From sequence record SRR31156797_4018: DNA of 64,000 bases. One strand, given 5' to 3'. The notes below the pieces were generated by a model. The model saw nothing but the letters and a program-made list of their open reading frames with translations. It searched no databases and was not told the origin of the DNA. A program made the translations under genes and the position numbers. Shown piece by piece: positions 9,616-19,278 of this stretch (within the stretch, counting starts at the first letter, position 1; the number at the start of each line of letters is the position of its first letter).

Positions 9616-10353
9616 TCAGGCGATCAGCTCCCCGTTTCTGATTTTATCAGATGCCAATAAATTTTGAAGGTGTTTGTTTCGAATAGCCATTTTCATCACT
9701 TCTATGTGCTGAGGCCTATGAAAGTCAGAACCAATTAGATCAACCATATCTTCTTTCACTAACCTTTCAGCTAACTTGCGGGTGGGTACCCCATATTCAT
9801 CAGCAAAAGAATTGATATTCAACTGAAACCACACTCCACGATCTTTCAATTCTCGAAAAATATCAAAATTTCGAAACCAATAGCTGTAGCGTTCAGGATG
9901 GGCCATAATGGGAATAAGCCCGGCAGTTTGCATCTGAAAAATAATATCTTTTAAAATCTCAGGAGGATTCAAAAATGATAATTCAAATAGAATAAACCGA
10001 TTGTTAATGGCTAATATTTTATCTTTATCAAAGTTTTTATAGAACTGATAATCAATATAATATTCAGCTGCTGCATCAATTTTAACGGGTATACCTTCTT
10101 TTTGAACTGCCAACCTCACTTTTTCTAACCCATCTAAAATTACTTCAGGAGTATTTGGGTAATAATCACTCATAATGTGAGGTGTTGTAATCAAATGATT
10201 ATATCCAGCTTCATGCAATAATTTAATTGATTGCAAGCTTTCCTCAATAGTTTTTACACCATCATCAATACCGGGAATGAGGTGTGAATGCATATCCACA
10301 CCTACTGATTTAAGGTCTAAGTTGGTTTTATTTGATCGGAAAATACCGAACAT
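9616..10353 (-). CDS. CpsB/CapC PHP-family tyrosine phosphatase (capsule regulation)
   Basis: DMHSHLIPGIDDG, TPH, AHPERY, GSDFH motifs. Confidence 0.9.
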   Translation of the reverse strand: MFGIFRSNKTNLDLKSVGVDMHSHLIPGIDDGVKTIEESLQSIKLLHEAGYNHLITTPHIMSDYYPNTPEVILDGLEKVRLAVQKEGIPVKIDAAAEYYIDYQFYKNFDKDKILAINNRFILFELSFLNPPEILKDIIFQMQTAGLIPIMAHPERYSYWFRNFDIFRELKDRGVWFQLNINSFADEYGVPTRKLAERLVKEDMVDLIGSDFHRPQHIEVMKMAIRNKHLQNLLASDKIRNGELIA

Positions 10354-10355
10354 GT

Positions 10356-11411
10356 TTATCTCCCTTTATACATTTGATCATAATAGGCTTGATAATCGCC
10401 TGAAATCACACTATTTAGCCAATCTTCATTGGCCAGGTACCAGTCTACAGTTTTTTCTAATCCTTCACTGAATTGCAAAGATGGCTCCCATCCTAGCTCT
10501 TTCATTATTTTAGAGCTATCAATGGCATATCGCATATCATGTCCTGCCCTATCCTTAACGAACGTAATAAGTGAGGCAGATGTTCCGGCATCTCGCCCTA
10601 ATTTTTTATCCATGATGGCACAAAGTTCCTTAATCAGGTCAATATTGGTCCATTCGTTATTCCCTCCAATATTGTATGTTTCTCCATTCTGGCCCTTATG
10701 GTAAACCAAATCGATAGCCGATGCATGATCTTCTACAAAAAGCCAATCCCTTATATTTTCTCCTTTACCATAAATTGGAATTTGCTTCATGTTTTTGATG
10801 TTGTTAAAGGCTAATGGAATAAGCTTTTCAGGGAATTGATTAGGACCATAATTATTTGAGCAATTGGTAATTACAATTGGTAATTTATAGGTGTTATGAT
10901 ACGCTCTCACAAAATGATCAGAGCTGGCTTTTGCTGAAGAATAAGGACTTTTTGGATCATAACTTGTTGTTTCTGTAAATAATCCTGTTTGACCTAATGA
11001 TCCGTATACCTCATCGGTAGAAATATGATAAAATAATTTGCCTTCCATATTATCTTTCCAATAAGTACGCGCTGCATTGAGTAAAGCCACAGTTCCAAAA
11101 ACATTGGTGCGAATAAATGCCATTGGATCTTCGATGGAACGATCCACATGAGATTCAGCAGCCAGGTGGATAACACCATCAAATTGATATTTCTCAAATA
11201 ATTTGTTTACAGCATCCTCATCAGTGATATCTGCTTTTTCGAAAATATAATTTGGTTTACCATCAATATCTTTAAGATTTTCAAGATTTCCGGCGTAGGT
11301 CAGTACATCCATATTCACAATTTTGTATTGCGGGTAACGATTTACAAATCTGCGTATCACATGTGAACCAATAAAACCTGCACCTCCTGTAATCAATATT
11401 GTCTTTTCCAT
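10356..11411 (-). CDS. rfbB: dTDP-glucose 4,6-dehydratase
   Basis: GGAGFIG, LAAESHVDRSI, STDEVYG, YSSAK, NNYGP motifs. Confidence 0.96.
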   Translation of the reverse strand: MEKTILITGGAGFIGSHVIRRFVNRYPQYKIVNMDVLTYAGNLENLKDIDGKPNYIFEKADITDEDAVNKLFEKYQFDGVIHLAAESHVDRSIEDPMAFIRTNVFGTVALLNAARTYWKDNMEGKLFYHISTDEVYGSLGQTGLFTETTSYDPKSPYSSAKASSDHFVRAYHNTYKLPIVITNCSNNYGPNQFPEKLIPLAFNNIKNMKQIPIYGKGENIRDWLFVEDHASAIDLVYHKGQNGETYNIGGNNEWTNIDLIKELCAIMDKKLGRDAGTSASLITFVKDRAGHDMRYAIDSSKIMKELGWEPSLQFSEGLEKTVDWYLANEDWLNSVISGDYQAYYDQMYKGR

Positions 11412-11474
11412 TATTTTAGTTTTTATCTTATCTCTATTTTAAAATTTGCACCAAAGTAACTGACTTATGATGAA

Positions 11475-12506
11475 TTACTCAATATTTCTGATCTTTTTTT
11501 CCCAAGCCCATGCTGAAGCCAATGTCTCCTCCAATGTTTTCTCAGCTTTCCAGTTCAATTCTTTCTCAGCAAATGAAGCATCAGCATATATTTGTTCCAC
11601 ATCACCTGCACGTCGAGGTGCCATCGCATAGTTTAACTTTTTACCTGTAGCCTTTTCAAAACCTTTCACCACATCTAAAACTGAAGCACCTTTTCCAGTA
11701 CCCAGATTAAACACTTCAAACCGGGTTTTCATTTTTGAATCCACTTGCCTTTGGATGGCAGCCACATGTGCTTTGGCCAAATCAACCACGTTGATATAAT
11801 CTCTAATGCATGTTCCATCTGGTGTGTTATAATCATCACCAAATATTTTCAATTGATCGCGTAATCCGGCTGCAGTTTGTGTTACAAATGGCACCAAATT
11901 ATTGGGTACTCCTTTAGGCGACTCTCCAATCAAAGCGCTTGGATGGGCACCTATTGGATTAAAATACCGCAAAGCAATAGACTTAAAAGTATTATTTGCA
12001 TCAGCAAATTCCTGCATTATTTCTTCGCTAATACGCTTGGTATTTCCGTAAGGTGATTCAGGGCGAATAACAGGAGTTTGTTCTGTAACTGGCAGCTTCT
12101 CAGGCTGGCCATAAACAGTACATGAACTGGAGAACACAAGATGTTTAATACTAAACTTGGCTGATAACTCTAAAAGATTAATCAACGAATTCAAATTATT
12201 GCGATAATACATCAAAGGTTTCTCAACCGACTCACCAACAGCCTTATAAGCGGCAAAGTGAATAGATGCAAAAATATTCTGCTCATTTTTTAGTACTTCC
12301 TGAAGTGCTGAAAAATCCGTCATATCGACTTCATAAAAAACAGGTTTTTGACCGGTAATCTCCCCAATTCTATCAACAACAGCTTTTTCTGAATTAGAGA
12401 GGTTATCAATTATAACCACATCAAATCCAGCTTGCTGCAATTCAACAACTGTATGGGAGCCAATATATCCGGTACCTCCGGTAACCAATATCTTTTTATT
12501 CTGCAT
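11475..12506 (-). CDS. galE: UDP-glucose 4-epimerase
   Basis: GGTGYIGSHT, KAVGES, YGNTK, LRYFNPIGAH, DGTCIRDY motifs. Confidence 0.95.
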   Translation of the reverse strand: MQNKKILVTGGTGYIGSHTVVELQQAGFDVVIIDNLSNSEKAVVDRIGEITGQKPVFYEVDMTDFSALQEVLKNEQNIFASIHFAAYKAVGESVEKPLMYYRNNLNSLINLLELSAKFSIKHLVFSSSCTVYGQPEKLPVTEQTPVIRPESPYGNTKRISEEIMQEFADANNTFKSIALRYFNPIGAHPSALIGESPKGVPNNLVPFVTQTAAGLRDQLKIFGDDYNTPDGTCIRDYINVVDLAKAHVAAIQRQVDSKMKTRFEVFNLGTGKGASVLDVVKGFEKATGKKLNYAMAPRRAGDVEQIYADASFAEKELNWKAEKTLEETLASAWAWEKKIRNIE

Positions 12507-12578
12507 AAATCACAATTTGAGCAACGAAGATACTAAGAAAAACTCAGCTTCAATAAAACTTAAACCTGAGATAATTAT

Positions 12579-12586
12579 TAAATTTG
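12579..12586 (+). promoter_or_regulatory. Bacteroidota -7 promoter element for the leader-TBDT operon
   Basis: TAAATTTG fits TAnnTTTG, about 70 nt upstream of the GTG at 12657. Confidence 0.5.
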
Positions 12587-12656
12587 TAAGATAAAAAAAC
12601 CTGGTTTACATAAACAAAGTAAAACTTATACTGTTAAGCAATCTGAATCTAACCTG

Positions 12657-13040
12657 GTGAAAAGTTCAACATTAACATATATTGCAATCTTCTTGTTATT
12701 GGTATTTCTAATACCAATGCAATATAGATTTTTGCATGTGCTTGAACATCACTTTGCCGGTAATCCTATAAATCATCATTCTCATAATCATCATAATCAT
12801 GAGGACCATCACAATTGTAACCATAATGATGAACCCAAAGGTGATTACAACCTAAATGAAACTATAGATATTTGCCCGGTTGTAGAATATGAGTTTGCGG
12901 TATCCGATGAACCAGCAATTGAAAACACAACTTCAAAACCAGATTTTAGAGCGAATACTGAAAATAATTTTCATTTAACTTTCATAAATTCCTATTCAGG
13001 AACTCAAAAGCAACTTAGAGCCCCACCTGTAACTACTTAA
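12657..13040 (+). CDS. His-rich leader protein with N-terminal hydrophobic segment and C-terminal RAPP ribosome-arrest-type motif (CruR/CutF/DUF2946-like)
   Basis: Hydrophobic N-terminus, 12 His within about 30 residues, ends KQLRAPPVTT; 43 nt before a TonB-dependent receptor. Confidence 0.75.
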   Translation: MKSSTLTYIAIFLLLVFLIPMQYRFLHVLEHHFAGNPINHHSHNHHNHEDHHNCNHNDEPKGDYNLNETIDICPVVEYEFAVSDEPAIENTTSKPDFRANTENNFHLTFINSYSGTQKQLRAPPVTT

Positions 13041-13070
13041 AAAATACAAAAACCAAAAAGTAGTTTTTTT
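13031..13070 (+). terminator. Possible attenuator hairpin with U-tract between leader ORF and TBDT
   Basis: AACTACTT (13031-38) pairs with AAGTAGTT (13058-65); T7 run at 13064-70; weak AT-rich stem with long loop. Confidence 0.35.
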
Positions 13071-13083
13071 CAAATATTATGGC

Positions 13084-15480
13084 ATGAAAAACATAATTCT
13101 AACAGCAATTATGTTGCTGTTATCGAACCTTGTTTTTAGCCAACAATATGAAATACACGGCAAAATCATTAATGATAAAGGTAGGCCAGTTTCCGGAGCT
13201 GTTATTCATACAACACCTGGAAATCTAGATGCATTAAGTACTCAAAAGGGCGCTTTTAAAATCACTGGACTTGTACGCGGCAATTATAAGATCGTTGTTT
13301 CATATGTTGGTTATGAAATTGAGGAGTACAACATTAAAGTTCCAAATAAATCGCCACTGATTGTAACTCTTAAGCCCGGTGTAGAGCATTTGCAAGAGGT
13401 TATCGTAGAAGATCACCATGCAAGTAAAAGGCGGCGGGAAGAATCTCAGAATATTGAAATAGTTAACAATCAGTTTATCGAGCAAAACATGGGTGGTAGT
13501 TTAATGCAATCATTACGCAGATTACCCGGTGTTTCATCAATGGATATTGGTGCTGGCATATCAAAGCCTGTGCTACGCGGTTTAAGTTTTAATCGGGTTG
13601 TAGTGGCTGAAAATGGCATTAAACATGAAGCCCAGCAATGGGGTGCCGATCATGGACTGGAGATCAATCAGCATAGTATTTCCGAAGCTGAAGTTATAAA
13701 AGGCGCAGCATCACTCATGTATGGTTCTGATGCTATAGGAGGTGTAATTAATCTCAAGAATTCATTTTTACCATCGCAAAACAGTTTTGGTGGTGATTTC
13801 AACTTATTAGGTGAAAGTATCAATGATAAAATTGGAACATCTCTGAATTTATTTGGAAGAAAAGAGAAATCATATTTTAATGCCAAAGTAAATTGGTCTG
13901 ACTACGGAGATTACAAAGTACCAACAGATGTAGTGTATATTTATGATGCACCTGCCTACTTAAAGGATAACATGATGAGAAATACTGCTGGTGAAGAGGC
14001 AAGTCTTAATGTTATTTTGGGAGTTAAAACAGACAGTTTACATTCCCTGGTAAACTTAAGTGTTTACCACGCTAAATCAGGTTTTTTTGCTAATGCGCAC
14101 GGATTAGAACCAAGAAATGTGGATACTGCCATATACGATAGAAAAAGCAGAGACATTCAGCTACCTTACCAACAAGTTCAGCATTTAAAAGCCTCTTATT
14201 TTTTATCAATTCAAAAACAAAGACACCATTTTGAAATAAATGTAGGATGGCAAAACAACCTACGTGAAGAGCGCGGGCCATATACAAATCATGGTTACAT
14301 GCCAGACAGTTTGCCTACTGAATTGGGAATCCCTGAAACAAGAGAGCGCTGGTTTGATAAACACACAGCAACACTTCATATATCAGATAAAATTAAAACT
14401 AGAAAACATGAGATAAACATTGGATTACAATCTCAATTTCAGATAAATGAAATAGGTGGCTGGAATTTCATCATTCCTGCATATAACCAATTAACCAGTG
14501 GATTATTTATATATGACAAATGGACTTTAAATGAAAAACTGATTGCCCATGCAGGCATACGCTACGATATTGGTTTTTTGAATACAAAGAATTATCAGGA
14601 TTGGTTTAGAACTCCCATTGAAAATGATTTTGGAGGTACAGATTCCATTTACCTCGAAAGGGCTGCCAAATTGAACAAACAATTTGACAACATCAGTTAT
14701 TCTGCTGGCATAAATTGCAACTTAACACATTTCGAGTTTAAAGCTAATGCAGGTAGAAGCTTCAGAATGCCAACTGCCAAAGAATTAGCTGCCAACGGTG
14801 TTAATTACCACCTATACAGTTATGACTTGGGCAATGATGAATTAAGTCCGGAAATATCTTATCAGTTGGATTTTTCCGGTGAGGTTCATTATCCTTTATG
14901 GGCATTTCAGGTAAGTCCTTTTGTAAATTACTTTCCAAATTATATTTATTTGAACCCAACACCTTTTTTTGATTTTGACCATGGTGCAGGGAATCAAAAA
15001 TTTGAATATCGTGAAAGTGAAGTATTTAGGTTTGGTGGGGAAATTCACGGACATTACAAATTAATGGAATCTCTTAAGCTGGGCGTGATTGGTGAGTATA
15101 TTTTTGCCAGGCAACTTTCAGGAGCTAAAAAAGGCTATTCTTTGCCATTTTCAGCACCTGCCACGTTACTGGTCAATTTAAAATACACGCCTGATTGGTC
15201 GAACAATCTAAATGGATCCTTTTTCTCAGTTGATTATAAACTTACAGCAGAACAAAACCGTACTGTTCCGCCCATAAAAACCACACCGGGGTATGCATTA
15301 GTAAATCTATCGATGGGAACTAAAATTAAATGGAACCAACAATGGGTGCATTTTACATTTAGAGTCAATAACCTACTGGATAAGAAATACTTAAACCATA
15401 CCAGCTATTACAGATTAATAAGCTTACCGGAACCGGGAATCAACTTCTCAGCTTCGGTAAAAATTCCTTTTACTTTTTAA
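13084..15480 (+). CDS. TonB-dependent outer-membrane receptor, probably for a transition metal
   Basis: Signal peptide, carboxypeptidase-regulatory-like N-domain, plug motifs KPVLRGL, QQWGADHG, KGAASLMYGSDAIGGVIN; C-terminal Phe. Confidence 0.93.
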   Translation: MKNIILTAIMLLLSNLVFSQQYEIHGKIINDKGRPVSGAVIHTTPGNLDALSTQKGAFKITGLVRGNYKIVVSYVGYEIEEYNIKVPNKSPLIVTLKPGVEHLQEVIVEDHHASKRRREESQNIEIVNNQFIEQNMGGSLMQSLRRLPGVSSMDIGAGISKPVLRGLSFNRVVVAENGIKHEAQQWGADHGLEINQHSISEAEVIKGAASLMYGSDAIGGVINLKNSFLPSQNSFGGDFNLLGESINDKIGTSLNLFGRKEKSYFNAKVNWSDYGDYKVPTDVVYIYDAPAYLKDNMMRNTAGEEASLNVILGVKTDSLHSLVNLSVYHAKSGFFANAHGLEPRNVDTAIYDRKSRDIQLPYQQVQHLKASYFLSIQKQRHHFEINVGWQNNLREERGPYTNHGYMPDSLPTELGIPETRERWFDKHTATLHISDKIKTRKHEINIGLQSQFQINEIGGWNFIIPAYNQLTSGLFIYDKWTLNEKLIAHAGIRYDIGFLNTKNYQDWFRTPIENDFGGTDSIYLERAAKLNKQFDNISYSAGINCNLTHFEFKANAGRSFRMPTAKELAANGVNYHLYSYDLGNDELSPEISYQLDFSGEVHYPLWAFQVSPFVNYFPNYIYLNPTPFFDFDHGAGNQKFEYRESEVFRFGGEIHGHYKLMESLKLGVIGEYIFARQLSGAKKGYSLPFSAPATLLVNLKYTPDWSNNLNGSFFSVDYKLTAEQNRTVPPIKTTPGYALVNLSMGTKIKWNQQWVHFTFRVNNLLDKKYLNHTSYYRLISLPEPGINFSASVKIPFTF

Positions 15481-15498
15481 AAATTAAATTTTATACGT

Positions 15499-16350
15499 AT
15501 GAAAACTTTAAAAATTTTAATACTATTAATTATTGGATTAGCAATTTTAAGCAGCTGTAAGAAAGACGATGATGATAACAAAAAAAATCTACCCGCAATT
15601 CTCTCATGGGAATTTGGCTATGAAAATTCAGGTATTGCCTATGCCGGTTCTGATCTACATATGGAAGCAGAAATTGAAGCAGAAAACAAGGTAAGTACTA
15701 TTCAAGTCACCATTCACCCTGAGGGAGAACACAAAAGCCTGATGCACGAAGAGTGGGAAGTTGATACTACATATACAAAATTTTCAGGAATTATTAACCC
15801 AACTTTCCATGAACACCTGGAAGTGCCTGCAGTAGCAGATACAGGACATTATCATTTTCATTTCATTATTACTGATATGGAAGGCTATGTAACAGAAAGA
15901 GAAGAAGAGTTAGAAGTATTATACCCAACAGATACTGAAGCTCCAACGATCACAGTTTCAACTGCTCCACAGACAGATGAAGAATTTGCTAACGGAGCAA
16001 CCATTAGTATCTCAGGTACTGTAACTGACAACATTGCCTTAGGTGGAATCTATATTTGTTTGGTTAGAGTAAATCAAAATCTTGAGGATGCTGACGTTAA
16101 TGCTATGAATACCATCACTTTACTCCACGCTCATGAATTTGACAATCACATGGAATACAATTTCGATGCTTCTATTGTAGTGGGTGCAACCAGTGATAAT
16201 AATCCAGATCCAACCGACCTTACAGGAGACTTAGATGGTGGTGCGGCATGGCAATCCGGTGCTTATTATCTTGTGGTAAAATCACCTGATGCATTTGGTG
16301 GTGGCGTAGCATTTTCGCAACATTATCCTATTTTACTTAATCTTGAATAA
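15499..16350 (+). CDS. DUF4625-like His-rich lipoprotein with two Ig-like repeats
   Basis: Lipobox LSSC; HPEGEH, FHEHLEVP, GHYHFHF, HAHEFDNH. Confidence 0.8.
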   Translation: MKTLKILILLIIGLAILSSCKKDDDDNKKNLPAILSWEFGYENSGIAYAGSDLHMEAEIEAENKVSTIQVTIHPEGEHKSLMHEEWEVDTTYTKFSGIINPTFHEHLEVPAVADTGHYHFHFIITDMEGYVTEREEELEVLYPTDTEAPTITVSTAPQTDEEFANGATISISGTVTDNIALGGIYICLVRVNQNLEDADVNAMNTITLLHAHEFDNHMEYNFDASIVVGATSDNNPDPTDLTGDLDGGAAWQSGAYYLVVKSPDAFGGGVAFSQHYPILLNLE

Positions 16351-16822
16351 TATGAAAATCCCAAAATTAATTTTGATAATTATGCTCTTTGCAGTTGCAT
16401 TTAGCAGCTGTAAAGAGGATGAAGATGTAGACCAAACTGCTCCAACCATTGACATAAGTGCAATAGAAGCATTTCCAAAACAATGCGATACGCTATATCG
16501 TGGAGAAACCTTCACTTTTATTGCCACTTTTTCTGACAATGAAGCATTGGGTTCATACAGTTTGGATATCCACAATAATTTTGATCACCATTCACACACA
16601 ACTGAATGGGAAGAGTGTGAATTATGGCCGGTTCAAACGCCTGTAAATCCATATTTATTGATTGAAGGATATGAAATTCCCGATTCGCCTCAAACATTCA
16701 CCACACATTTGGAAATAACTATTCCTAATGATGTGGATCAAGGCGATTATCATTTTATGATTCGGGTTGTGGATGTAAATGGATGGCAGACCTTACGAGG
16801 GCTTAGCATCAAAATTCTTTAG
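16343..16822 (+). CDS. DUF4625-like lipoprotein (ATG at 16352 is an alternative start)
   Basis: Lipobox FSSC; DNEALGSYSLDIHNNFDHHSH; GDYHFMIRVVD. Confidence 0.85.
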   Translation: MNNMKIPKLILIIMLFAVAFSSCKEDEDVDQTAPTIDISAIEAFPKQCDTLYRGETFTFIATFSDNEALGSYSLDIHNNFDHHSHTTEWEECELWPVQTPVNPYLLIEGYEIPDSPQTFTTHLEITIPNDVDQGDYHFMIRVVDVNGWQTLRGLSIKIL

Positions 16823-16838
16823 TTCATAACACACTTAT

Positions 16839-16889
16839 AAATGAAAGGCAGGGTTGAAAATAATTCTTCAGCCCTGCTTTTTCATTTTT
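16839..16889 (+). terminator. Rho-independent terminator ending the TBDT-DUF4625 operon
   Basis: GCAGGGTTGAA...TTCAGCCCTGC stem followed by T-rich tail. Confidence 0.8.
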
Positions 16890-16989
16890 AATTATCAAAA
16901 CAGATTTTTTATCATTTAGAAATTTCATAAAAAATGAAATTATATTAAATTCGTAACCAATTGACTATATTCATTATAATCCTACTCAA

Positions 16990-18549
16990 ATGAAATATCT
17001 TATTTTATTTGCGCTTATACTGTCATTTGGATTAGCGCATGCCCAAAAGGGTGAATATTGGGTTTTCTTTACGGATAAAAAGGATGTCCAATTTGATCCA
17101 TACACTTATTTCGATGCAAAAGCTATTGAAAGACGCTTAAAATCAAACATCCCATTGGATCATTTAACTGATTACCCTATCAATTCAAACTACAAAAAAT
17201 CTGTTTTAGATAATGCGGAAGGTTTAACAGGAGAAACACGCTGGTTTAACGCCATTGCTGTTTGGGCCTATTCAGATCAAATTGAGATAATACAAAAACT
17301 TCCTTTTGTTAAAAACACAGAACTCATAAGAAGCGAGTCTCAATTGGCTGAGAAAAAGTTCAGTATGGATTTAGGGAATAAAAATGAATTTATTCTAAAA
17401 AAGCAAATAGAAGGCATGCAGGGAGCCAAATTCAAAGAAGCTGGTTTTACAGCTAAAGGAATAAGAATTGCAGTTTTTGATGGTGGATTCCCTACAGTGG
17501 ATGTTAATCCGGTTTTTAGTCATTTACATGAAAACAATCGCATTATTGACACCTGGGATTTCGTGAAAGAAAAGCCTTATGTGTACGATTATAACAGCCA
17601 TGGCCTTGCAACACTTTCCTGCATTGCCGGAATAACAAAAGAAAAACAAATGGGATTGGCAATTGAAGCAGAGTTTTTACTGGCACGCACAGAAAAAAAC
17701 ACCGAACCATTTTCAGAAGAAGTAAACTGGATGCAAGCTATGGAATGGGCTGACAAAAAAGGAGCTGACATTATTAGTAGTTCATTGGGCTATACACATA
17801 ACCGGTACTTCATTAATGACATGGATGGTAAAAAAAGCCTTGTAACACGCGCAGCTAATATGGCCGCTGCAAAAGGAATGATAGTAGTGAACTCCATGGG
17901 AAATGAGGGAGACGGAAAATGGAAATATATGGGTGCTCCTGCTGACGCAGACAGTATTTTATCAATAGGTGGCTTAGATCCGTTTACAGATTATCACATT
18001 AAATTCAGTTCTTTTGGCCCCACGGCTGACAAAAGACTTAAACCAAATGTTTGTGGCTATGGACATGCAATTACTGCCGGAAAAGGTAAACTAAAAGATA
18101 GCTATGGGACTTCATTCTCTGCACCATTAGTTGCTGGATTTGTTGCCTGCGTATGGCAAGCTAATCCTAATTTGACCAACATGGAGCTTATGCGTGAAAT
18201 AGAAAAATCTGGTCATTTATATCCATTTTTCGATTATGCGCATGGCTACGGAATGCCTCAGGCAGGGTACTTTACAGATCAAAAACAAAAACCGGTAACT
18301 CCACTATTCAATTTTGTTGAAAAAGAAAATGTTGTGGCCGTTGTCTTAAATAATGCTCAACAAAGCTATTTCTCAATAGGTGCAAATAAAGTATACTATC
18401 ACATTCGTAAGCCGGATGGTGTTTTACAAGAATATGCCCTGGTAGTACCTTACCAGGAAGAAGTGTTACTTATATCAAAAGATAAATTACAGGATGGAAA
18501 CAAACTGGCTGTATTCTACAATGGACATTATGCAGAATTTGGCAACTAA
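16990..18549 (+). CDS. Secreted S8 (subtilisin-family) serine peptidase
   Basis: Signal peptide; triad motifs AVFDGGF, SHGLATL, GTSFSAP; oxyanion NSMGNEG. Confidence 0.92.
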   Translation: MKYLILFALILSFGLAHAQKGEYWVFFTDKKDVQFDPYTYFDAKAIERRLKSNIPLDHLTDYPINSNYKKSVLDNAEGLTGETRWFNAIAVWAYSDQIEIIQKLPFVKNTELIRSESQLAEKKFSMDLGNKNEFILKKQIEGMQGAKFKEAGFTAKGIRIAVFDGGFPTVDVNPVFSHLHENNRIIDTWDFVKEKPYVYDYNSHGLATLSCIAGITKEKQMGLAIEAEFLLARTEKNTEPFSEEVNWMQAMEWADKKGADIISSSLGYTHNRYFINDMDGKKSLVTRAANMAAAKGMIVVNSMGNEGDGKWKYMGAPADADSILSIGGLDPFTDYHIKFSSFGPTADKRLKPNVCGYGHAITAGKGKLKDSYGTSFSAPLVAGFVACVWQANPNLTNMELMREIEKSGHLYPFFDYAHGYGMPQAGYFTDQKQKPVTPLFNFVEKENVVAVVLNNAQQSYFSIGANKVYYHIRKPDGVLQEYALVVPYQEEVLLISKDKLQDGNKLAVFYNGHYAEFGN

Positions 18550-18567
18550 TCTTAAAAACTGACATCA

Positions 18568-19278
18568 ATGAAAAAACTCATCATATTATCACTGCTATTT
18601 TTAGCCATATCTACCGGATTTAGTCAACGATACTTACTGTTTGAAAATGTTGACCGAGAATGGGATGTAAGAAACACCAATTTTGGCCCCAATAAAAAAC
18701 ACTTCGTACACTCGTGGATTACTGCAGGGCAGGTTCTAGGAACTTCAGCAGACAGTCTGCCTGCAAAATACTGGGGGAGCGGTAGTTTAGGATTTGGGGT
18801 ACGTTATAAGCACAAACTAACCTCATGGTGGTCGCACGGATTTGATTTAGGCTATAATTACCAATCGTATAGCATTGCCCAAAAAGATGAAAAAATGCTG
18901 CTTGACAATAACCAATATGAAAAAGAAAGACTGAACTTTCATCAGATTACTGGGGATTATTACTGGCGTTTTAGATTGGGAAGGGCTGGAAATTATATTG
19001 GTAAATTTCTAGATATTGGTGGTTATGGAGCATGGAACTTCAGTAAAAACCATGTGATAAAAGCCAATGATGACATTCAGAACGCAAAAAAACAAAAAAC
19101 CAAATTTAAAAATGTGAATTATCTAGAAGATATAGAGTATGGTGCTATTGCGCGACTGGGATTTAACAGAGTAACATTATTTGGCAAATATCGGCTTAGC
19201 AATTTACTAAAAGACGTTCCTGAAAATTCCGATCAACTTCCGGCAATAACTGTGGGGTTGGAAATTAGATTGAACTAG
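18568..19278 (+). CDS. Outer-membrane beta-barrel (porin-family) protein
   Basis: Signal peptide, alternating amphipathic strands, terminal strand ITVGLEIRLN. Confidence 0.6.
   Translation: MKKLIILSLLFLAISTGFSQRYLLFENVDREWDVRNTNFGPNKKHFVHSWITAGQVLGTSADSLPAKYWGSGSLGFGVRYKHKLTSWWSHGFDLGYNYQSYSIAQKDEKMLLDNNQYEKERLNFHQITGDYYWRFRLGRAGNYIGKFLDIGGYGAWNFSKNHVIKANDDIQNAKKQKTKFKNVNYLEDIEYGAIARLGFNRVTLFGKYRLSNLLKDVPENSDQLPAITVGLEIRLN

Follow-up and report, generated by a model that had tools for sequence, protein, structure and literature searches.

The leader reading frame and the operon it heads

This analysis concerns a small open reading frame (ORF) that heads an operon in a 64,000-nucleotide stretch of DNA from sequence record SRR31156797_4018, hereafter called the window; all features of the operon lie on the plus strand. 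The leader ORF (12657-13040), defined by its translation, its homologues and its profile family, has 127 codons, begins with GTG and ends in QLRAPPVTT, followed by a TAA stop codon at 13038-13040, so that its layout reads MKSSTLTYIAIFLLLVFLIP..HVLEHH..NHHSHNHHNHEDHHNCNH..CPVV..QLRAPPVTT. Its RAPP codons, AGA GCC CCA CCT, occupy 13017-13028 and encode residues 121-124. An intergenic region of 43 nt (13041-13083), which by base counts is part of a stretch with more C than G, separates the leader from a gene for a TonB-dependent receptor of 798 amino acids (aa) with an ATG start (13084-15480), in which Pfam recognizes CarboxypepD_reg, Plug and TonB beta-barrel domains. Two DUF4625 lipoprotein genes (15499-16350 and 16352-16822) come next, and a hairpin resembling an intrinsic terminator (16843-16882; 16 pairs, 6 of them G-C, followed by a T-run), found in a hairpin scan, closes the unit. 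All of these elements (the 127-aa ORF, the coordinates of its RAPP codons, the 43-nt gap, the receptor, the two lipoproteins and the terminator) had been listed in an earlier sequence-only reading, and translation and family scans confirmed them.

The leader begins with a hydrophobic segment (residues 5-20, 12669-12716; Kyte-Doolittle mean of 2.76 over 15 residues from residue 5), which is preceded by a lysine and is predicted to act as a signal anchor or signal peptide; inspection of the N-terminus revealed no obvious AxA cleavage site. Both the GTG start and the hydrophobic N-terminus are kept in a 58%-identical homologue from a Salinivirga metagenome-assembled genome (MAG; locus L001), and a comparable segment is present in 73 of the 77 members of the leader family described below, with Lys or Arg before it in 72 of those. 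Further along come the motif H27-V-L-E-H31-H32 (12735-12752), at a helix end, whose H27 is invariant in the alignment of the 77 sequences; a His-rich tract, HHSHNHHNHEDHHNCNH (residues 40-56, 12774-12824), which contains C54 and falls into the variable-length region of the family; C73-P-V-V (12873-12884), aligned with the CxxC of the family and carrying Val in place of the second Cys; and a spacer of 44 residues (12885-13016), fixed in length and almost unconserved in sequence, as judged from entropy and from offsets counted from the Arg of RAPP. AlphaFold2, given the 77-sequence alignment, predicts a single helix over residues 4-33 and coil over residues 34-127 (pTM 0.32). Among the 66 open frames in the window that reach 100 aa or more, which total 21,666 aa, the sole copy of [RA][AG]PP is that of the leader.

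Conservation of the leader family and its relation to CruR

A word-indexed search retrieved three close homologues, 87, 58 and 56% identical to the leader, all of which finish with GTQKQLRAPP plus two residues, where the window leader has three. A HMMER profile search of 1.84 billion representatives (E<=1e-3) returned 74 proteins of 101-185 aa, and the family set used throughout comprises 77 proteins, that is, 76 relatives and the window leader. The conservation of RAPP in orthologous leaders, on which the sequence-only reading had staked its proposal, held when it was examined: R[AG]PP is present in all 77 proteins (70 RAPP, 7 RGPP) and in 30 of the 31 distinct related loci. It lies 1-10 residues from the C-terminus in 76 of the 77, the remaining gene call having a 53-residue tail. 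H27, C73, R121, P123 and P124 are invariant in the alignment, and P20 and A122 nearly so. RAPP is thus more than a chance occurrence, and the only substitution seen, A to G, yields the two core sequences for which arrest is reported to be most robust (PMC12992588).

Also fixed is the distance between the Cys and the RAPP motif. The Cys stands exactly 48 residues before the Arg in 76 of the 77 proteins and 47 before it in the other one; in the leaders from 31 genomic loci, the window included, the distance is 48 in 24, 49 in 6 and 47 in 1. Across this interval no indels occur in 76 of the 77 sequences, and entropy at offsets -34 to -4 from the Arg is near-maximal (3.3-4.0 bits). Folded domains do not look like this, with length held constant and sequence left free. 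The only part of the protein that varies in length runs from the first His after the membrane segment to the Cys (27-91 residues). A second Cys (offset -45) is present in 55 of the 77 proteins and absent from 22, including the window leader with its CPVV, so that the leader does lack an intact CxxC, as had been read from the sequence at the outset.

Of 401 Bacteroidota genomes sampled, 34 contain matches to the leader family, at most 4 in any one genome, and 31 distinct related loci were distinguished (L001 and L003-L032; L002 duplicates L001). Leaving out one locus with no R[AG]PP ORF (L024) and one with no ORF of more than 35 aa within 400 nt (L030), we scanned the proteins encoded downstream in 29 loci and in the window, and in 28 of these 30, the window included, the gene next to the leader carries CarboxypepD_reg and Plug. 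The two exceptions (L027 and L028, extended as L041 and L042) have first a lipoprotein of 154-159 aa without an assigned family and then an ORF of about 750 aa; in both of them a GGAGGA-type sequence stands ahead of the lipoprotein gene. Receptors 41-43% identical to that of the window occur in three loci (L004/L033, L005/L034 and L025/L035), each followed by two DUF4625 genes, and the unit leader-receptor-DUF4625-DUF4625 is thus conserved in four genomes. The receptor of L001, on a truncated contig, is 69% identical. The leaders of the orthologous operons have a CxxC (CAIC, CGIC, CKIC), and those of the window and L001 have CPVV; since orthologous operons are headed by CxxC and CxxV leaders alike, the loss of the second Cys is not the mark of a different type of operon.

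The known system that the leader resembles in most of these respects is CruR (Bp2923 of Bordetella pertussis, the DUF2946 prototype), in which copper releases the arrest and Rho terminates transcription (PMC9426467). Like CruR, the leader is the small first gene of a TonB-receptor operon, and its hydrophobic N-terminal segment may correspond to the export signal of CruR; a constant number of residues (45 in CruR, 44 in the window leader) separates its Cys motif from a C-terminal RAPP, which is located 3 residues from the end; and a stretch with more C than G marks the 3' end of the upstream ORF (uORF). Both are predicted to be unstructured, CruR having likewise been reported as poorly structured (PMC9426467). 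In the CruR family the CxxC-to-RAPP spacing of 45 is described as conserved within 1-2 residues, and changing it alters regulation (PMC9426467). In contrast to CruR, the window leader has CPVV instead of CxxC, an H-x3-HH motif, a His-rich loop and no PF11162 match of its own; its intergenic region is 43 nt long as opposed to 162 nt, DUF4625 lipoproteins take the place of a PepSY-type membrane protein downstream, and the leader occurs in a phylum that does not use Shine-Dalgarno sequences. The features that it has in common with DUF2946 leaders are the C-terminal RAPP, the fixed Cys-RAPP spacing and the position as first gene before a TonB receptor.

Three further systems invite comparison. Small ORFs with RAPP or RGPP were reported by Fujiwara et al. 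(2025) to be enriched upstream of TonB receptor genes and to be universal in Gram-negative bacteria, the Cu-related class being stated to be missing from Bacteroidota (PMC12992588). The window leader agrees with the class described there, in which small secretory or membrane proteins, encoded upstream of TonB receptor genes, carry the motif close to the C-terminus; the text considered contains neither a definition of the family nor a rule for the spacing nor an example from Bacteroidota, and ORFs of the window type may be in the lists of that paper (PMC12992588). CutF of Rhodobacter capsulatus, also a DUF2946 protein, is described as a nascent chain that is exported, senses metal, has a Pro-rich stall site at its C-terminus and controls the gene that follows, all of which we would predict for the window leader as well; copper promotes stalling of CutF, a stem-loop over the ribosome-binding site melts, and a detoxifying oxidase is turned on (bioRxiv 10.1101/2025.02.05.636593). 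Unlike in CutF, an importer lies downstream of the window leader, and our modelling gives no unmasking of its start. Finally, ApdA and ApdP have an identical RAPP core (PMC10951233), and we assume that the arrest geometry, with RAP occupying the P site and Pro the A site, is the same; however, these two monitor Sec/YidC, precede protein-localization genes and are described without metal-ligand motifs (PMC10951233). The window leader is followed by a TonB receptor gene rather than by sec or yidC.

Profile searches place the family at some distance from DUF2946. PF11162 matches at E<=0.1 were obtained for 22 of the 77 members (best 1.4e-6), and the alignments of three members checked singly extend over the full model (5-117 of its 117 positions) and score 18-21 bits, compared with a gathering score of 23.7. 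Neighbours in the ESM Atlas are unnamed Bacteroidota clusters, 4 of the 30 nearest forming a set with 17% PF11162-carrying members. Public sources annotate the relatives as hypothetical proteins without a Pfam domain, and among the DUF2946 papers listed, judged by title and the beginning of the abstract, none deals with Bacteroidota. Judged by these profiles, the leader family appears to be a remote, effectively unannotated branch of the CruR superfamily and not a recognized DUF2946 member; with its CxxC incomplete and the Pfam threshold not reached, the window leader is filed apart from DUF2946.

To our knowledge, metal-sensing arrest leaders have been shown experimentally only for copper and only in two proteobacteria. 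The principle, that of CruR, is known, and what is new is an unnamed, Pfam-invisible branch in the Bacteroidota. A Cys 48 residues before the Arg of R[AG]PP provides a simple criterion for finding such leaders among genes now called hypothetical proteins, and the same rule predicts how far the nascent chain must reach for sensing. The branch would also tie the arrest mechanism to the poorly understood receptors with DUF4625 lids, and the loss of the second Cys in one third of its members constitutes a natural experiment that bears on the ligands required and on the question whether sensing of this kind extends to metals other than copper.

Proposed mechanism and competing explanations

Taken together, the comparative evidence supports well the core reading, namely that a RAPP arrest leader heads a TonB/DUF4625 operon, and the kinship with CruR and CutF that the sequence-only reading had suggested was borne out by conservation, spacing and linkage. 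We propose that the leader ORF acts in cis as a regulatory uORF like those of CruR and CutF, belonging to a Bacteroidota-wide, unannotated branch remotely related to DUF2946, and we put the probability of this proposal, which is drawn from sequence comparison, at roughly two in three. That the leader acts as an arrest-based regulator is likewise probable; a polarity like that of CruR is less so.

In the model that we infer for arrest, export, metal binding, polarity and termination, a promoter some 70 nt upstream of the GTG would drive the operon, and the nascent leader would be brought to the inner membrane by its N-terminal hydrophobic segment. At arrest, the P site is predicted to hold CCA (13023-13025) and the A site CCT (13026-13028), with the ribosome covering the message up to about 13038, an assignment drawn from the ApdA/ApdP structures (PMC10951233) and the CruR toeprint (PMC12992588). 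At this point Cys73 would be 50 residues from the peptidyl-transferase centre, about the length of the exit tunnel plus the translocon, and the membrane-proximal His27/31/32 and the His/Cys-rich loop would already be outside. Two outcomes can then be envisaged. First, with no metal present, the ribosome would stay arrested on the last codons and would thereby block access to both the C-rich 3' end of the leader and the weak hairpin at the stop codon, and RNA polymerase would continue into the receptor gene and the two genes for the DUF4625 lid lipoproteins. Second, with enough periplasmic metal, chelation by the His cluster together with Cys54/Cys73 would compact or pull the chain and release the arrest; the ribosome would terminate 3 codons later, and transcription or translation of the importer would then be attenuated, either through Rho, following the CruR pattern, or through the hairpin with its T-run.

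How such an arrest might be read out in RNA was addressed in three ways, none of which is decisive: by the accessibility of the downstream start site, by the pairing of the segment under the stalled ribosome, and by base composition. Across the 30 loci, pairing of the 22-nt footprint with downstream RNA exceeded that of dinucleotide shuffles (z averaged 0.74 and was positive in 24 loci, with a Wilcoxon p of 4.5e-4, a value that is optimistic since the loci are related). The minimum free energy fold of the window contains an A/U-rich hairpin (13031-13070), in which 13031-13038 pairs with 13058-13065 (8 bp, 2 of them G-C, with a 19-nt loop) and a T-run extends to 13070; its 5' arm would sit under a ribosome stalled at RAPP. 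Hairpins of this kind, with an arm formed by the tail and stop codon and running into a T-run, occur in the window, L005 and L023. Other loci show other designs: in L001, GCCAC of the RAPP codons pairs with GUGGC just 5' of the receptor AUG; in L027, RAPP codons (GCUCCUCC) pair with GGAGGAG just before the next AUG; and in L031, pairing joins the tail and stop codons to the AUG region. As to composition, the final 130 nt of the leader plus the intergenic region contain more C than G in 27 of the 30 loci (mean C-G of +0.074, compared with +0.002 in the downstream gene), and positions 12969-13046 of the window contain 18 C and 6 G. This stretch resembles the bubble of C over G that was mapped as a rut site in cruR (PMC9426467).

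Several observations, at the level of both RNA and protein, weigh against our proposal. Holding the footprint unpaired changed the accessibility of the receptor start by 0.00 in the window, and a SecM-like unmasking of this start was rejected; over the 30 loci the change averaged +0.05 and exceeded 0.1 in only 9. The pairing of the window footprint is not significant by itself (z 1.31, with 7 of 60 shuffles as high). The hairpin at 13031-13070 is weak, and that of the closest homologue is not followed by a T-run. The excess of C over G follows in part from Pro, Ala, Ser and Thr codons, and the intergenic region, so much shorter than that of CruR, leaves little room for Rho loading outside the coding sequence. 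The window leader itself matches no Pfam or NCBIfam family and gave no PF11162 match at E<=1, nor did a six-frame PF11162 search of 5 Bacteroidota genomes with family members give any at E<=1. The leader also lacks the second Cys of the CxxC, whereas a double Cys mutant of CruR lost copper control (PMC9426467). The literature that we considered contained no report of RAPP arrest on Bacteroidota ribosomes. Lastly, Fur-family genes lie beside two orthologous operons, as detailed below, and ordinary transcriptional control may be the main regulator.

The alternative that survives best keeps the arrest leader but replaces Rho with a switch in RNA structure that would act on translation initiation or intrinsic termination, as in SecM, MifM or CutF, perhaps with the polarity of CutF, in which metal promotes the stall. 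The pairing of the footprint segment above the level of shuffles across loci and the individual designs in L001, L027, L031, the window, L005 and L023 speak for it, as does the melting of a stem-loop by which CutF works (bioRxiv 10.1101/2025.02.05.636593). We nevertheless regard it as unlikely. Start accessibility is unraised in the window and inconsistent across loci, the structures vary from locus to locus, and that of the window is weak. Further scans for close relatives yielded L001 again from genome contigs and, from metagenomes, a sequence 99.9% identical to it (L047), which leaves only two distinct close sequences, too few for covariation in the intergenic hairpin. In addition, the polarity of CutF would turn on an importer when metal is plentiful, which makes little physiological sense.

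Slightly less probable still is that the ORF encodes a functional protein, a small membrane-anchored periplasmic metal-binding protein serving as a chaperone or as a relay from the receptor, in which RAPP would have a structural, sorting or secondary role. Such a protein would account for sequence-level conservation that includes candidate ligands (H27, H31/32, C54, H56 and C73) and for the membrane anchor, and it would suit an operon that has neither an inner-membrane transporter nor a periplasmic binding protein. In addition, 5 of the 77 members weakly match the CzcI family of periplasmic metal proteins (best E 3e-5). However, AlphaFold2 predicts no fold past the N-terminal helix, and 44 residues are fixed in length and free in sequence. 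The invariance of R and PP, with only A or G at the second position of the motif, fits an arrest on the ribosome rather than a binding surface, and RAPP is absent from the other open frames of the window and is reported to be excluded from bacterial proteomes (PMC12992588).

For the regulatory uORF that we favour, the question that follows is which metal it would sense and by which residues. The constant ligand candidates in the sequence are H27 (with H31/32), C54 or a neighbouring Cys or His, and C73. A poly-His segment, which the sequence-only reading had taken to be the sensor, is not supported as such, given that the tract lies in the variable-length region and that the invariant candidates are H27 and C73; moreover, the median number of His residues is 9 in family members both with and without the second Cys, which does not favour poly-His as a replacement. 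As for the metal itself, zinc would be our first guess, albeit with the odds against it, and the hints are weak: a ZnuD-like receptor and Fur-family genes nearby. The best solved relative of the receptor is ZnuD 4rdr (E 3.7e-16, 62 bits), which denotes similarity only, and its NCBIfam scores (TonB-hemin 150, ZnuD 116 and copper 40 bits) are all far under the cut-offs, the partial match to the ZnuD model NF038289 scoring 116.5 bits against a cut-off of 950 bits. One Fur-family gene (L033:7932-8345, minus strand) lies directly upstream of an orthologous operon and overlaps the open frame of its leader. Another (L034:2306-2683, minus strand) is located about 2 kb from the operon, beside genes of the MerC family and for GTP cyclohydrolase I (L034:2767-3823, plus strand). 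NCBIfam matches of these Fur-family proteins all fall far below the cut-offs, and Zur, Fur and PerR are not distinguishable among them. A tblastn search found no homologues of the Fur, MerC and FolE neighbours in the window.

A tentative and rather doubtful elaboration of our proposal would be a Cys/His variant of the CruR design without a CxxC, which reports a periplasmic metal other than copper, most plausibly zinc. A spacer of 48 residues in which length alone counts would bring Cys73 to the mouth of the translocon at the moment of arrest, chelation with the membrane-proximal His27/31/32 would pull the chain and free the ribosome, and the leader would add a second layer, a translational one, to a Fur-family repressor in the control of a ZnuD-like receptor with its DUF4625 lids. 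Since Bacteroidota do not use Shine-Dalgarno sequences and their ribosomes ignore them, the read-out of such a variant would be transcription attenuation or the accessibility of an unstructured leader rather than the unmasking of a ribosome-binding site. That a poly-His tract instead replaces the CxxC as the sensor and confers Zn/Ni/Co specificity, as the 13 His residues of the window leader (above the family median), its missing second Cys, the solved relative of the receptor and the Fur-family genes adjoining orthologous operons in 2 of 3 other genomes might suggest, is very improbable, given the equal His numbers with and without the second Cys, the variable length of the region, the CxxC in the leaders of L033, L034 and L035, the unassignable Fur-family subtype and the receptor's sub-threshold ZnuD, heme and copper scores.

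Downstream genes, promoter region and related loci

The first DUF4625 lipoprotein (15499-16350) has 283 aa, with the DUF4625 domain (PF15418, E 1.2e-26, 93.9 bits) and a C-terminal extension, and has orthologues in L033 and L035. The second (16352-16822; PF15418, E 7.4e-43, 146.4 bits) has about 156 aa when read from the ATG at 16352 and contains the motif DIHNNFDHHSH. In the ORF list it begins with a TTG at 16343, from which it would overlap the preceding gene by 8 nt. The ATG is the more likely start, as it would provide a typical lipoprotein signal (MKIPKL...AFSSC). Both proteins score above the PF15418 gathering score of 27 bits and have lipoprotein-type N-termini (..LSSC and ..FSSC). IH and YH motifs are invariant in all 8 aligned DUF4625 proteins, the small paralogue having DIHxNFDHHSH. 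The AlphaFold2 model of the small protein is a plain beta-sandwich, for which a Foldseek search of the PDB returned only generic Ig-like sandwiches (best TM 0.49) and nothing metal-specific. A text search indicated that DUF4625 is rarely named in the literature. DUF4625 proteins have been suggested to serve as lids on TonB transporters of the non-SusC kind (bioRxiv 10.1101/2023.03.17.533168), and the operon is arranged as described there for BT1419 with BT1420, with a DUF4625 lipoprotein gene directly after a non-SusC TonB receptor gene, the difference being that the window has two such genes.

Upstream of the leader, a motif scan identified a candidate Bacteroidota-type -7 element, TAAATTTG (12579-12586), of the form TAnnTTTG, which we take to be the Bacteroidota -7 consensus. 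It is the sole plus-strand TAnnTTTG between 12507 and 15026, and it aligns with TACCTTTG in L001 at the same distance from the GTG. It provides weak evidence, since the window holds no excess of the motif (82 occurrences against 96 expected). That the receptor has no promoter of its own in the gap, as the sequence-only reading would have it, agrees with the absence of a plus-strand TAnnTTTG from 12587-15026. A single promoter ahead of the leader would fit these data, with the reservation that the motif is common. A scan for sigma-70-type promoters gave no enrichment (17 found, 20.6 expected), a search of the 166 nt upstream for inverted repeats that could point to a metalloregulator operator found none with a 6-nt seed, and an Rfam search at permissive thresholds over 10000-19000 found no riboswitch or leader RNA, only two chance-level matches. 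The divergent gene upstream (11475-12506, minus strand) presumably encodes a UDP-glucose 4-epimerase, a resemblance noted on reading the sequence and not from a family search.

Among the related loci, L035 contains a second RAPP leader (L035:4113-4442, plus strand; 109 aa, ending in EKSRAPPVFNF, with the Cys at offset -47 from the Arg) that follows the receptor gene and precedes the two DUF4625 genes, so that the lid genes may be gated apart from the receptor. The Salinivirga MAG (genome G001, contig C153, locus L003) encodes a paralogous CPVV leader of 127 aa that ends in HLRAPPFCV, with a gap of 221 nt to the downstream gene for another receptor, which shares 25% identity with that of the window; several leader-receptor pairs can thus occur within single genomes. 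In four RGPP-type loci of flavobacterial appearance (L036, L037, L038 and L043), in which the intergenic regions are 92-146 nt long, a gene for a protein of about 705 aa follows the receptor, and its N-terminus, as we read the sequence, resembles those of prolyl oligopeptidases; in L043 a lipoprotein gene and a 124-aa ORF lie between the two. Finally, the codons of the receptor signal peptide in the window include a perfect 9-bp hairpin (TAACAGCAA..TTGCTGTTA, 13100-13122) that starts 16 nt past the ATG; the scan flagged it as terminator-like on the minus strand, and a weaker hairpin is found at a similar place in L001.

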